From sequence record PX651718.1: a stretch of DNA of 52,949 nt, one strand, 5' to 3'. Below are positions 13,534 through 52,949 of the stretch, in pieces; positions within the stretch are counted from its first letter, which is position 1, and the number at the start of each line of letters is the position of its first letter. A model generated the notes under the pieces. That model was not told where the DNA came from, did no database searches, and was given only the letters and a program-made list of their open reading frames with translations. Both the position numbers and the translations under genes were made by a program. Source of the stretch: a phage.

Positions 13534-13746
13534 ATGGCGGTTATCACTCGTTTAGATGCCCGCTCACGCAAGAACAACTCCTTCCAGATTCAAGATTTGG
13601 AAGGAAACATTTTATGTGTGATTGAGGCAGTTTCTACCACAGAGAGCGACTGTGTTAAATTAAAGCACGAGTCAAATCTGCGACTCCACACCTCCGACAA
13701 CATTCAAATTGTTAAGGGTAATGGAACTATTCTAAGGAAGAAATAA
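13534..13746 (+). CDS. hypothetical protein
   Basis: ATG at 13534 with GGATG upstream; in frame with track ORF 13522..13746. Confidence 0.4.
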   Translation: MAVITRLDARSRKNNSFQIQDLEGNILCVIEAVSTTESDCVKLKHESNLRLHTSDNIQIVKGNGTILRKK

Positions 13747-15062
13747 TGACTTCCAAGAAGAAAAACAATCTTTCTGTTAAAGTTGCAGATGGGTTAGAAA
13801 ACCTTGTAACGGGGTTGGGCGGTCAGGCAGATAAGTCCACTTTTAACCAGTGGACTTTCTCAAACAAGAACGCGAACTATCGCGAACTTATGAACCGCTT
13901 CCGTGAGGATTGGGTTGCACAGAAAGTGTGTACCGTCATTCCTCAAGACATGACGCGTAAGTGGCGACATATTGATAGTGAAGAAGGACGCAAAGCGGAT
14001 AAGAAACTTCGTATTCGTAAGCTGTTCCGTGAGGCATATCAATGGGCCAGATTGTATGGTACTTCATTTGTTCTGCTCGACCTGAAAGGTACGGGCAAAC
14101 TTGATACACCATTGCGACTGGATAACTTGAAGACTGGATGTATTAAATCCATGAGAGTTATTGACCGCTCACGCTTATTTGCCGCAGGGACTATGGTTCT
14201 GGACCCTTTGAGTCCTCACTATGGTTTGCCAGAGTATTATACTTTGGCTGGGTATCCCGGCTATATCCACTACACTCGTTTCCTTCGGTTCGAGGGTACT
14301 GAACTACCGCTGTTCGAATTCCAACGCAACATGTGGTATTCCGATTCGGTACTTATTCCACTGCTGAAAACGATTGACCAATTCTACACAACTGCTGCTG
14401 CTGCCGCCAGCCTCGCCCAAGAAGCCACCATTGATGTGGTAACTGTCGAAGGCTTACAATCTCTGCTTACATCACCGGAAGGTGAAGCTGCTGTGATGAA
14501 GCGCTTCAAACTTATGAAGCTGGCAAAGAGTATTTATAACGTCTTAATTCTCGACAACACTGAGAAGTATGACACCAAGTCAATTGCACTATCTGGTGTG
14601 AAAGATTTGATTTGGGAATACTTGAAGATAGTTGCTGCCGCAGTTGGTATTCCGGCTACACGTTTCCTTTCTGCATCTCCAGACGGTATGAATGCTACGG
14701 GCGAATCTGACCTCGTAAACTATATCGACTTGTTGACTGGCTTGCAGACTTCTGTGTTCGACCCTCGTTTAGATGTGGTAGACAAGATTGTCCAAGCGCA
14801 CTTTGGCATCGAAGAGTATAGCTACGAATGGCTAGATATCTTCCCTGAATCCAACGTTGAGAAAGCGAAGCGAGCTAAAGATTTGGCATTTGCTGTTGAC
14901 CTGCTGGTTAACAACGGCACTATTACTACCGAAGTTGCAAACGAAGTCATGTTCCATTCGGGCGTGTTCGGAACTTGTGACCTTGGCAAGCCAAATCCTA
15001 ATCCTCCTAACATCCAAAAGGGTAACGCAAGTGAAGCAAAACCAAAACCTGGTTCAGCTTAA
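13746..15062 (+). CDS. portal protein (putative)
   Basis: 438-aa ORF with RBS AAGGAAG, directly downstream of terminase and upstream of scaffold/capsid genes; assigned by synteny. Confidence 0.6.
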   Translation: MTSKKKNNLSVKVADGLENLVTGLGGQADKSTFNQWTFSNKNANYRELMNRFREDWVAQKVCTVIPQDMTRKWRHIDSEEGRKADKKLRIRKLFREAYQWARLYGTSFVLLDLKGTGKLDTPLRLDNLKTGCIKSMRVIDRSRLFAAGTMVLDPLSPHYGLPEYYTLAGYPGYIHYTRFLRFEGTELPLFEFQRNMWYSDSVLIPLLKTIDQFYTTAAAAASLAQEATIDVVTVEGLQSLLTSPEGEAAVMKRFKLMKLAKSIYNVLILDNTEKYDTKSIALSGVKDLIWEYLKIVAAAVGIPATRFLSASPDGMNATGESDLVNYIDLLTGLQTSVFDPRLDVVDKIVQAHFGIEEYSYEWLDIFPESNVEKAKRAKDLAFAVDLLVNNGTITTEVANEVMFHSGVFGTCDLGKPNPNPPNIQKGNASEAKPKPGSA

Positions 15063-40405: not shown

Positions 40406-40409
40406 CGAC

Positions 40410-50865: not shown

Positions 50866-51540
50866 ATGTCTTATCATGATGATGACAAAGAGATTGCACT
50901 ATCAACGTGTAAGCAATGGCTCAATGATAATGATGCCGTCTATCTTGCCAAGGAAGATGTTATCATTATGTGGGTCCATTTTAATCCAGAATCGAAGCGC
51001 GGTGAGTGGCAACGCTACAAGATGAAAGAGGCTTGTCGCATAATTAAAGCCACACGCGCTGGCTTCTCCGCCATGAAATATATTAAGCCGGAGATGCTGA
51101 TGCTTGCTGCACAGGAAGAAGAACGTGCATATAAGCAGGCTGTTAAATCTCGTTCAACTGTTCCTCCAGAGTTCTTTAATTTGGAGCGCGCTGGACACTT
51201 CAACAATTTAGAAATGTTGACACTGTGCCTGTTGCAAGAATTAGTTGGAAGAGGACAAAACATTGAAGCTGTTTGTCTTGGAGAACTTATGAAAGAGTTG
51301 TTCTCGGCAAAGGGCTTTGCTGTGCCAAATCGAACTTTACGCTGGAAATTGTTGCGAGCAGTCGCGCAAGAAGCTGGTGTAGTTGTTCGTGACAGAACAA
51401 ACCGACTCACTGTAACTGGAGTTGGGCGTTTTGTAGCAATCCAGATTGAGGGTTATGACGAATCAATCATCACTGAACTCACTGTCGCTGAGACAAAGGA
51501 TTTAGTAAATAAAACACTAGAACGATTCAACAGATACTGA
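50866..51540 (+). CDS. hypothetical protein (224 aa)
   Basis: Track ORF. Confidence 0.55.
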   Translation: MSYHDDDKEIALSTCKQWLNDNDAVYLAKEDVIIMWVHFNPESKRGEWQRYKMKEACRIIKATRAGFSAMKYIKPEMLMLAAQEEERAYKQAVKSRSTVPPEFFNLERAGHFNNLEMLTLCLLQELVGRGQNIEAVCLGELMKELFSAKGFAVPNRTLRWKLLRAVAQEAGVVVRDRTNRLTVTGVGRFVAIQIEGYDESIITELTVAETKDLVNKTLERFNRY

Positions 51541-51571
51541 GTCGTTTGACGAATCAGAGCAGTTCTGAAAC

Positions 51572-51587
51572 ATTAGTTGGATGTGGA
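51572..51587 (+). promoter_or_regulatory. promoter-like motif ATTAGTTGGATGTGGA preceded by TCTGAAAC
   Basis: 15 of 16 match; about 75 nt upstream of the next ATG. Confidence 0.45.
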
Positions 51588-51663
51588 AAGAGAAAGGCTC
51601 TTTAATTTTATCTAAGTCACGTCACCGTGGCGTGCAAAACTATTCAATATAAGGTATATACAA

Positions 51664-52002
51664 ATGGCTAAGATTGTAACCGTAACTCAGTACGAAGCTA
51701 ACGATGGTTCCCTGTTCCTGACCGAAGCAGAGTGTAATGCACATGACTTCAAACTGGAAAACGGTGCTAAAATTGAGAAAGCTGCCGAAGCGTACCTGAA
51801 CACCGTTGGCGCTATCGACCGTTCTCGCTCCATGCAGAAGAACACCATCGAGCAGTTCCTGGCATTCTACCTGCCGTGGGTTGAAGCTGGTGAGCCGGAA
51901 GTTGAGCGTACTAAGTTCGATACTCCGAAAGAAGCTAAAGTTGCTGACGCAGTTGTCGCAGAAGCTGCCGAAGCTGCTGTAGAAGAAGCTCCGGTATTCT
52001 AA
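51664..52002 (+). CDS. hypothetical protein with acidic Ala/Glu-rich C-terminus ending in F
   Basis: Track ORF with AAGGTATA RBS; codon usage resembles highly expressed E. coli genes; ends AEAAVEEAPVF. Confidence 0.55.
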   Translation: MAKIVTVTQYEANDGSLFLTEAECNAHDFKLENGAKIEKAAEAYLNTVGAIDRSRSMQKNTIEQFLAFYLPWVEAGEPEVERTKFDTPKEAKVADAVVAEAAEAAVEEAPVF

Positions 52003-52908
52003 GTTGCCGATGGCAAACTTGAGAGACTAAGCTAAATCGATCTGGCATGCACTGGAAGTTTTCCGGTGCTGCCTTGAACCCACTCTGAAAGGAAGAGTGG
52101 GCTTCAATGAGCATTCTTGTGATTAGAGTTGGGAGGAAGGCCGATGCCCAAGCTCATGGCCCAGACGAGAGTGTTCATTGAAGTAGTTTTCTGAGTCTTA
52201 CGACGGGCCTAAACTGCCTGGAGTTATTGCGACTGTTTTATTCATTTAAAATAAATGCAAATGATTCTGAAATGCGAGTTGCGGCTTAATTAAATTTAAG
52301 TCCTCTCCGTGGTCTTCCAATCCCACGTAACCAAATTTGGCGCATTGTGGCTTCGAGATGTGATTAATAAATCGGAGCAATAATTAATTTGTATTCTGCG
52401 ATGCAATGCAGGCTTAAGTCCCTCAGTGCGCGTGGGGATGTGACAGAGTACAAACTTAATTATGCAGTTGGATATTTCTAGAGGACGGACGAGCACACTG
52501 GAATGTCTTCAATTGGTTTAGTGTGAGAAGCTATGCCAATATGAAACGTAACTCCTTGGGGAAGTGCTCCTCTGGATTTCCCTCCACACAGGAATCTCAA
52601 GCCTGTGGCAGCGACTTCGAAGCTGCACTGCGTAACCTAAATTCACCCTAAAGTGAGTTGCCCTGAGTATGGAAATAAACTGCTCATAACCGATGGTATC
52701 TACAAAGGTAGATTAAATCAGGTTGCCTGTTGGTACTTGGGGGTTCAACACCTGCTTGCACTCGCAAAGTAGTGCCTTGTACCTGAGATGAAGTGAGTCG
52801 GGACCATCAATCCCACGTTATGTCAAAACACAGTAGGCGGCTCACAGATTCTACAAGCCTCGCAGTTCGGGGAAAACCTGCGTTATCAAAACCCCCCCCT
52901 CATTATTT

Positions 52909-52949
52909 GGACGAGTAGCTCAGAAGGTTTGCATTGTGCTCAGTCAGGT
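52909..52949 (+). tRNA. 5' portion of the same tRNA (acceptor 5' strand GGACGAG, D-arm) interrupted by about 20 nt of extra sequence
   Basis: GGACGAG at 52909-52915 is the exact complement of CTCGTCC at 44-50; GCTCAG occurs twice (52918-52923 and 52938-52943) around a 14-nt insert; joining 52923 to 52944 and on to position 1 gives a standard 75-nt cloverleaf. Confidence 0.5.

Follow-up and report, generated by a model that had tools for sequence, protein, structure and literature searches.

Transfer-messenger RNA (tmRNA) is defined by a tRNA-like domain (TLD) and an mRNA-like domain joined together, and its known partial versions retain the tRNA-like half. The reverse is seen in the phage sequence record PX651718.1, analyzed here as one stretch of 52,949 nucleotides (the window), where positions 52003-52908, upstream of a tRNA-like gene, contain a unit (52184-52463) that is very probably a tmRNA-derived, selected, structured RNA in which the tag template has been kept. 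Among phages, tmRNAs are found by ARAGORN in 402 of 18,146 genomes (PMC9004378), and the known carriers include mycobacteriophages, Bacillus phage G, and the TLD-only mycobacteriophage DS6A (PMC4131195). The unit described here likewise represents only one half of tmRNA in a phage, and DS6A is its mirror image, with the TLD kept and the tag template lost (Hudson et al. 2014, PMC4131195), while here the TLD is lost.

Compared with one-piece bacterial tmRNA (SsrA, RF00023), the phage unit shares an A-rich leader, a GCA resume codon, a stop codon within a hairpin, H-type pseudoknots 3′ of the tag, and a tag of ~10 codons that starts AN(D/E) and ends hydrophobic-x-A-A/V-A. By local alignment, it is collinear with nucleotides ~80-143 of E. 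coli ssrA through the leader, tag, stop codons, and following CCUCUC, and its layout matches that of the E. coli template (...AAAAAAUAGUC GCA AAC GAC GAA AAC UAC GCU UUA GCA GCU UAA). Unlike one-piece tmRNA, the unit is without an acceptor stem, T arm, G3:U70 pair, or ACCA in cis, has no clear pseudoknot 1 (PK1) or helix P2, and carries two downstream pseudoknots instead of the usual three (PK2-PK4); it is also ~200-280 nt long, phage-encoded, set among other RNA modules, and below both the Rfam gathering and the default ARAGORN thresholds.

In two-piece tmRNA, known from Alphaproteobacteria, cyanobacteria, and marine phages such as Melnitz (PMC9004378), the gene is circularly permuted and the coding part is a separate RNA freed by processing, as we infer for the unit here. 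Phage-encoded cases of this type are known, and the best (weak) Rfam matches of the unit are to tmRNA_permuted and alpha_tmRNA. However, two-piece tmRNA has its acceptor piece (T arm, 3′ acceptor strand, and CCA) encoded immediately 5′ of the coding piece, to whose 5′ end it base-pairs, and none was found here. A further likeness is to tRNA-punctuated processing, as in the phage T4 tRNA cluster with its small stable RNAs and in mitochondrial tRNA punctuation. As there, small RNAs lie within or next to tRNA genes (most lineages have a tRNA or tRNA-like gene 3′ of the unit), and release by tRNA-processing enzymes is probable; unlike there, long conserved junction helices (GGUAAGAGCAUUG / CAGUGCUCUUUCC; 52102-52119/52166-52183 in the window) bracket the units, and the cargo is tmRNA-like. 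Our reading of 52003-52908 as a whole, which we hold with middling confidence, is an array of small structured RNA genes that has self-complementary junction helices and tRNA-like elements as its boundaries and, at its core, a phage tmRNA-derived tag-template RNA acting in trans-translation.

Distribution, tag frame, and structure of the unit

By blastn, 52229-52379 is the only part of the region common with distant phages, namely Erwinia and Pantoea Chaseviridae, ~155-kb Ackermannviridae (Magnus, PH4), and one 48-kb Klebsiella phage; the core was also found in Escherichia phages, and its carriers belong to unrelated families. With the unit of the Klebsiella phage as the query, 782 of 50,697 phage records gave a blastn match (about 1.5% of sequenced phage genomes), spanning the Chaseviridae, Ackermannviridae, Ounavirinae (Felix O1-like), Schitoviridae (IME11, G17), and 46-48-kb Klebsiella and Salmonella phages, the last of which we take, judging by their genome size, to be T1-like. 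The annotation at the match was 'none' or 'hypothetical protein', never tmRNA, among the matches listed. Of 120 stretches picked out in IMG/VR by a pattern scan, about 90 are true homologues. A covariance model (R1) built from 23 non-Chaseviridae members matched 52243-52385 of the window over its full length (77.5 bits, E = 4.7e-15), and its one match at the E. coli ssrA locus, although weak (14.5 bits, E = 0.44), fell on the tag region. Sub-threshold matches to the Rfam models tmRNA_permuted and alpha_tmRNA were located at the same spot in five lineages (the window and four others). No blastn match was present in 5,426 E. coli genomes, and a prophage or host origin was rejected on this result together with a pattern scan of genome contigs, in which the 120 matches listed were due to chance. 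We found no earlier account of a TLD-less tag-template family in the searchable literature.

The tag frame opens with GCA downstream of the A-rich AAAAUAAAU and comprises exactly 10 codons plus a stop in all family members checked, with the pattern AN[DE]xxx[LR]x[AV]A. Across the 36 different nucleotide versions of the tag, third-position changes are the only ones at codons 1, 2, 3, and 10 (codon 10 being GCC, GCG, or GCU, and hence Ala in every version), which argues for translation of the tag; the middle codons, like those of bacterial tags, are free to vary. When run with a relaxed threshold, ARAGORN matches the resume consensus and reports the same resume site and tags. Two competing frames were discarded: an AUG-initiated frame overlapping the tag is unconserved, and is missing where the leader reads AAUCGCU or AAACGCU, and a second open reading frame (ORF) across the UGAUUAAUAA motif is not conserved in frame.

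Pairing statistics were computed on an alignment of 30 diverse members for the stop-codon helix, both stems of pseudoknot A, and stem S1 of pseudoknot B. In these four stems, 97.5% of cells are paired, compared with 30-47% when the partners are slid, and 10 of 19 pairs show two-sided changes; the observed values were reached by none of 500 shuffles. The stop-codon helix (89% paired) takes the forms CUGG/CCAG and CUGA/UCAG in other lineages, with three of its four pairs changing on both sides. Pseudoknot A is paired in 99.3% (S1) and 100% (S2) of cells, each stem having three pairs with two-sided changes, and the fifth pair of pseudoknot B S1 is C-G, U-A, or G-C. Stem S2 of pseudoknot B occurs in at least seven different versions, all complementary: GCCCG/UGGGC, GCCCUGA/UCAGGGC, GCUUCGA/UCGGAGC (the window's own), GACGGGAGG/UCUCCCGUC, GGCGGGAG/CUCCCGCC, AUCCCGU/ACGGGGU, and UCCCUGA/UCAGGGA. 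The crossing strand of this pseudoknot carries the near-invariant UGUGAUUAAUAA (52359-52370).

Elsewhere in the unit, the 3′-side hairpin at 52419-52438 covaries in phage TH25 (UCCCU/GGGGA to UCCUA/UAGGA), and the A/U hairpin near the resume codon has a counterpart in locus L017 (UUUAUC...GAUAAA) that, by eye, represents a compensatory change. RNAalifold gave no supported structure for the 5′ domain, with just this small hairpin (52237-52255) to set beside PK1 and P2. A pairing of GUUUUCGUU with AACGAAAAC further 3′ in the Erwinia phages shows no compensatory changes and has no counterpart in the window. A 25-nt stem-loop of the 5′ domain, GAGUCUUACGACGGGCCUAAACUGC (52192-52216), is missing from TH23, PYps23T, and PO103-1, the 5′ domain of which is then like the L017/L090 variant of IMG/VR contigs.

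The borders of the unit were drawn from relatives, since insertions and rearrangements fall exactly there: in DE15, 180 nt are inserted precisely at 52177-52184; in Mangalitsa, there is likewise an insertion at that point, and 52464-52650 is swapped for an imm-like gene; and in 4HA13, the tag unit comes first, followed by an HNH endonuclease and then module 1. In VLCpiS13b, wV8, Sf13, and BoyaciRG1, the unit lies within a tRNA cluster, followed by a hairpin and a tRNA, and a TTGACA-17-TAnnnT promoter sets +1 at the 5′ motif (U/G)AGUUUUCG. Taken together, a promoter of its own at the 5′ motif and the borders of the unit indicate a stand-alone RNA of roughly 200-280 nt.

Proposed role, the acceptor, and the 5′ end

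In the mechanism that we propose, the phage promoter at 51568 would drive co-transcription of the array, and host RNase P, RNase III, or RNase E, as the most plausible nucleases, would separate the units by cleavage at junction helices and tRNA-like elements. The freed RNA of ~200-280 nt would act as a trans-translation template on stalled ribosomes, such that nascent chains would receive a phage-specified tag, either replacing or beside the host ANDENYALAA. Use of the unit as a translated tag template is an evenly balanced call. Given that the unit is without a tRNA-like acceptor domain, the alanyl acceptor and SmpB function would then have to be supplied in trans; the most concrete candidate for the acceptor would be host tmRNA, tethered by the conserved 5′ end GUAGUUUUC(GU), which is antisense to ssrA tag codons 3-6, and the second candidate would be a phage tRNA-like RNA.

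Nucleotides ~95-107 of E. coli ssrA (tag codons GAC GAA AAC UAC) have their reverse complement in the conserved 5′ end of the unit, and the perfect complement extends over 9 nt in the window, 10-12 nt in wV8, L011-type loci, and BoyaciRG1, and 8 nt in the Ackermannviridae. Across the family, 22 of 27 distinct 5′ ends map to the ssrA tag codons, a count in which the motif is one shared block and the cases are not independent. Duplexes of the whole RNA with ssrA were uninformative. A 5′ seed that tethers the phage RNA to host tmRNA (providing the alanyl acceptor and SmpB), or that blocks host tmRNA, may be suggested only tentatively. Supply of the acceptor by host tmRNA through this seed seems unlikely, as does the scenario in full, in which a tag-template-only tmRNA of virulent enterobacterial phages would dock by its seed on the host tmRNA tag codons (or on a phage tRNA-like acceptor) and reprogram trans-translation.

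Several points weigh against a role in trans-translation. We know of no functional tmRNA without a TLD, and nothing consistent with an acceptor stem and T arm with G3:U70, A73, and CCA was found in cis or nearby. The one tRNA-like gene next to the unit with G3:U70, A73, and CCA, that of wV8, was downgraded as a TLD, being a degenerate copy of the ordinary tRNA-Arg(UCU) at the same place in Sf13. The seed/ssrA duplex is only 9-12 bp long and no more stable than those of shuffled seeds (-14.7 vs. -14.0 ± 2.2 kcal/mol), and the seed of Salmonella phage Se-G, GGUUUUCGU, is identical to that of Klebsiella and E. coli relatives. The Rfam matches reach 14-27 bits against gathering cut-offs of 47-84 (no Rfam 15 model is at threshold for the unit), and ARAGORN at its default settings reports 0 tmRNA among 94 loci. 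Finally, gene conversion involving the HNH neighbors of the unit could inflate its DNA conservation.

Further candidates for an acceptor domain fared no better. No 3′ complement of the unit's 5′ end was found in the window or in 60+ distinct relatives, leading us to reject an acceptor stem built from that end. Regarding an upstream acceptor piece, T-arm modules are present in some loci with 3′ strands that do not pair with the unit's 5′ end, and in other loci, a promoter, not an acceptor piece, lies directly upstream of the tag unit. No SmpB gene was found among the neighboring ORFs scanned. A one-piece tmRNA with a large insertion and the odd tRNA as its TLD was rejected given that the tag lies outside any helix closable by the GGACGAG repeats and that, in relatives, the tag unit and the tRNA are separated by modules independent of both. 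A 381-nt 'complete tmRNA' in Ackermannviridae (GCUGUUU...AAACGGC-U-CCA), with an apparent 7/7 pairing, was also discarded, as its GUUU belongs to a covarying local helix and its 3′ part is a self-contained 127-nt tRNA-like RNA (GCCGUU.../AACGGC-UCCA). With the tRNA-like domain sought and not found, the tag unit is not a complete tmRNA.

The missing TLD and the antisense 5′ ends also suit a different function, in which the unit would be an untranslated mimic of the mRNA-like domain and pseudoknots of tmRNA, titrating the host SmpB tail, S1, or RNase R, or an antisense seed blocking or destabilizing host tmRNA, with host trans-translation shut down during infection as a result. There is a precedent in the TLD-only phage tmRNA of DS6A, which has been proposed to inhibit tmRNA by SmpB titration (PMC4131195). 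However, a decoy needs no exact 10-codon frame, no third-position-only variation in codons 1-3 and 10, no invariant last Ala, and no stop at codon 11, and the energy of the seed duplex does not rise above the shuffled background; we consider inhibition of this kind unlikely.

Flanking modules and tRNA-like genes

The preliminary description of 52003-52908, made from the sequence alone, had noted no credible ORF, strong hairpins, and short repeats, and had listed noncoding RNAs among its options. The absence of a credible ORF was upheld: the longest is at most 66 amino acids (aa), none matches Pfam or PHROGs, and lengths shift among close relatives via 1-nt indels (the 'gp30' ORF of phage phiEcoM-GJ1, or GJ1, measures 42 aa here, against 86 aa in GJ1 and 54 aa in the majority of relatives). 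Strong structure was equally evident, with a minimum free energy (MFE) of -300.6 kcal/mol vs. -257.9 ± 7.1 for 20 dinucleotide shuffles (z = -6.0). The noncoding RNA option took shape as a dense array of conserved structured RNA modules (Table 1). Aligned with nine relatives, the region is near-invariant, whereas the end of the upstream gene diverges, and the few stem changes are compensatory, as at 52698-52713 (AUCUAC/GUAGAU to UUCCAC/GUGGAA).

At the level of single elements, the hairpins CCCACTCT/AGAGTGGG (52079-52101), CACAGG (52587-52592)/CCTGTG (52602-52607), and GCAGC...GCTGC (52608-52626) are where they had been placed, and ATCTAC-AAAG-GTAGAT does form a hairpin, one position away from that given, at 52698-52713. 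Similarly, GGACGGACGAGCA, which had been likened to the tRNA 5′ end, exists at 52483-52495 and not 9 nt upstream at 52474-52486. The repeated 11-mer CAATCCCACGT was found at both 52318 and 52808; its second copy is not kept in relatives, and the repeat as such is therefore probably incidental.

Table 1. Coordinates of the features of the RNA array and its surroundings in the window.
Feature	Position	Strand	Remarks
Phage-type promoter AAACATTAGTTGGATGTGGA	51568-51587	+	Identical to annotated 'putative phage promoter 7' of phiEcoM-GJ1
Hairpin CCCACUCU-GAAAGGA-AGAGUGGG, directly 5′ of module 1	52079-52101	+	Stem kept, loop replaced in relatives
Module 1: 18-bp closing helix (52102-52119/52166-52183), conserved 46-nt core GGGAGGAAGGCCGAUGCCC...AUGGCCCAG	52102-52183	+	
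tmRNA-like tag-template unit (mRNA-like domain and pseudoknots, without tRNA-like domain)	52184-52463	+	Borders from relatives; covariance model R1; weak Rfam hits
Conserved 5′ motif GUAGUUUUC, family consensus (G/A)UAGUUUUCGU	52184-52192	+	+1 of sigma-70-type promoters in relatives
A/U hairpin UUUAUU-CAUUUAA-AAUAAA, just 5′ of the resume codon, within the A-rich leader	52237-52255	+	
Tag frame GCA AAU GAU UCU GAA AUG CGA GUU GCG GCU UAA (ANDSEMRVAA*)	52257-52289	+	
Stop-codon hairpin CUUAA-UUAAAU-UUAAG, analogue of tmRNA helix 5	52285-52300	+	
Pseudoknot A: S1 52308-52312/52323-52327; S2 52317-52320/52337-52340	52308-52340	+	Covariation
Pseudoknot B: S1 52341-52346/52357-52362; S2 52350-52356/52372-52378	52341-52378	+	Covariation
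Two 3′-side hairpins: CUGC...GCAG (52396-52411); UCCCU...GGGGA (52419-52438)	52396-52438	+	
Module 3: GGACGGACGAGCA (52483-52495), hairpins CACACU...AGUGUG (52494-52525), 52587-52607, 52608-52626	52464-52650	+	
Module 4: hairpin 52698-52713, T-arm-like GGGGGUUCAACACCUGC (52739-52755), CGCAG...CUGCG (52861-52882), C8 run (52892-52899)	52651-52908	+	
tRNA-Arg(UCG)-like gene of 95 nt, 5′ part (rest at 1-54)	52909-52949	+	ARAGORN on rotated sequence

The hairpin 5′ of module 1 belongs to a CCCAYUC...GAGUGGG-CUUC element that is also present in 4HA13, Faunus, and Erwinia Y2. The closing helix of module 1 is perfectly complementary over its 18 bp and appears in the MFE fold. Because 4HA13, Fifi44, SSEM1, and Calisson carry this module 3′ of the tag unit, it is an independent cassette. 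Module 3 is near-invariant in relatives other than Mangalitsa, and 52658-52729 of module 4 is common to Pectobacterium phage PM1. The C8 tract lies 10 nt 5′ of the tRNA-like gene, has shorter or broken counterparts in relatives (CCCCC-TT, CCCCACCA, etc.), and may be a slippage-prone or assembly-sensitive site.

In other phage families, modules are bracketed by the conserved complementary junctions GGUAAGAGCAUUG ... CAGUGCUCUUUCC, many with T-arm-like loops. In T1-like, Ackermannviridae, and N4-like phages (L005 1570-1680; L003 1625-1765; L263 1063-1160; IMG/VR), the conserved junction motifs CACAACAGGUAAGAGCAUUG ... CAGUGCUCUUUCCGUUGUGG pair into helices of ~16-24 bp that always include a U.G wobble and enclose variable inserts, of which some have T arms. 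These helices may mark sites of processing by RNase III or RNase P; integron attC-like or intron-like junction repeats were rejected, as the motifs depart from the core-site consensus. A further widespread module runs from GUUGUGGUGAAUGCG(N)AGGCUGAU(N)CGC to AAAGCCGGAGAUCAGCACCGGCCACCACAAC, with a GUUGUGG/CCACAAC closure and covarying hairpins (L005 1678-1815, L003 1755-1985, L263 1143-1280), and has no Rfam match.

HNH homing-endonuclease genes repeatedly adjoin the tag unit, as in 4HA13 (L129 1723-2165), wV8 (L262 1381-1785), and Se-G (L267 1-139). In 4HA13, the HNH ORF has its stop codon in a second copy of UGUGAUUAAUAA and closes on the UAA of a duplicated GCCCGCUGUGAUUAAUAAUGGGGC. This suggests homing into the conserved RNA gene, with co-conversion of the flanks.

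Long tRNA-like genes with an encoded CCA are found right 3′ of the unit in several lineages, none of them of the Ala type, with lengths of 133 nt in L042, 127 nt in Ackermannviridae (L037/L125), about 100 nt in 4HA13 (L129 ~2695-2795), and 95 nt here. Those of L042 (+24 from the anchor), L037/L125, and L129 have an acceptor stem, a T arm, ACCA/UCCA, and extended closed 'anticodon' arms without a D arm, and are missed by ARAGORN and the Rfam tRNA model. The tRNA noted earlier at 52909 is real, except that it is severed by the window end and continues at 1-54. In GJ1, this gene is annotated as 'tRNA-Arg, may contain an intron'. Its acceptor stem, T arm, and CCA are canonical, and a 20-21-nt D-arm insertion, which differs among relatives (GGUUUGCAUUGUGCUC vs. 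GGUCUGCUCCAGAGCUU), sits between GCUCAG repeats; without 20 nt, the gene yields a canonical 75-nt cloverleaf. The anticodon stem can close down to a 5-nt loop, and the Rfam tRNA model scores 22.4 bits (cut-off 29) on the 3′ part.

With the unit located in or beside tRNA clusters, the modules flanked by junction helices and tRNA-like elements, and HNH genes abutting the unit (in 4HA13 to the point of a stop codon in duplicated UGUGAUUAAUAA), one might see only structured spacers that punctuate a polycistronic early transcript and aid maturation of the adjacent tRNA, or cargo and targets of HNH genes. We regard this as improbable, since it leaves unexplained the conserved tag frame, the retention of the unit in five phage families with different transcription systems, and the unit's own promoter in three lineages. 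Less probable still is a captured host ssrA or tRNA region that is now decaying and has no present function; tmRNA is indeed only partly present and the adjoining tRNA-like genes are aberrant, but four helices show compensatory changes, the frame is intact in every member, relatives are near-invariant, and E. coli genomes have no blastn similarity.

Genome setting and significance

By blastn, the phage is phiEcoM-GJ1-like (Chaseviridae, Carltongylesvirus; 85-99% identity over 51600-52949). The window ends (last 41 and first 54 bases) fuse into the single 95-nt tRNA-like gene, and the window is hence a circular permutation with an arbitrary cut, as had been considered. A pac or cos packaging signal, genome terminus, or replication origin, raised earlier for the case of such a permutation and favored by window ends that meet in an ORF-free, hairpin-rich stretch, is largely refuted and retains a negligible chance, given the arbitrary nature of the cut through the tRNA-like gene, a counterpart of 52003-52908 at 13,558-14,496 in the linear GJ1 record (52,975 bp), distant from the termini, the unrelated genome positions of the tag unit in other phage families, and conservation that follows compensatory base pairing and the codon rules of a 10-codon frame, unlike a DNA site.

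The long ORFs of the window are on the + strand without exception. The promoter at 51568-51587 is the closest one upstream of the RNA array; 51400-52949 holds no further phage promoter match, no sigma-70-like promoter, and no intrinsic terminator, and the array is most likely read through from this promoter. Copies of the phage-specific promoter consensus ACATTAGTTGGA occur at 40406, 44743, 49273, 49413, 49601, 51236, and 51568 of this T7-like RNA polymerase phage, and may help in the mapping of its transcription units. Upstream of the array, the ORF scan gave early genes with no function assigned. Downstream lie two spanins (232-468, 392-601), an ORF-poor stretch (602-1559), and then ThyX (1847-2341). 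The ORF-poor stretch, 3′ of the spanins, includes a 67-nt tRNA-like element at 957-1023 (GGGAUUU...CUGGUUCGAUUCCAG-U-GAAUCCC) without CCA, which has a counterpart in 4HA13 with a large insert and UCCA, along with further T-loop-like motifs at about 1482, and is probably a second RNA-module array.

Returning to the tag-template RNA and trans-translation, the carriers of the unit include the much-used Felix O1-like, ViI/CBA120-like, T1-like, N4-like, and GJ1-like groups. If the proposed role is true, large 'empty' regions of many phage genomes would become annotated RNA genes, and a blind spot would be shown in ARAGORN- and Rfam-based annotation. It would also mean that trans-translation can be assembled from, or hijacked via, separate RNAs, and that phages could choose the fate of stalled host or phage proteins.

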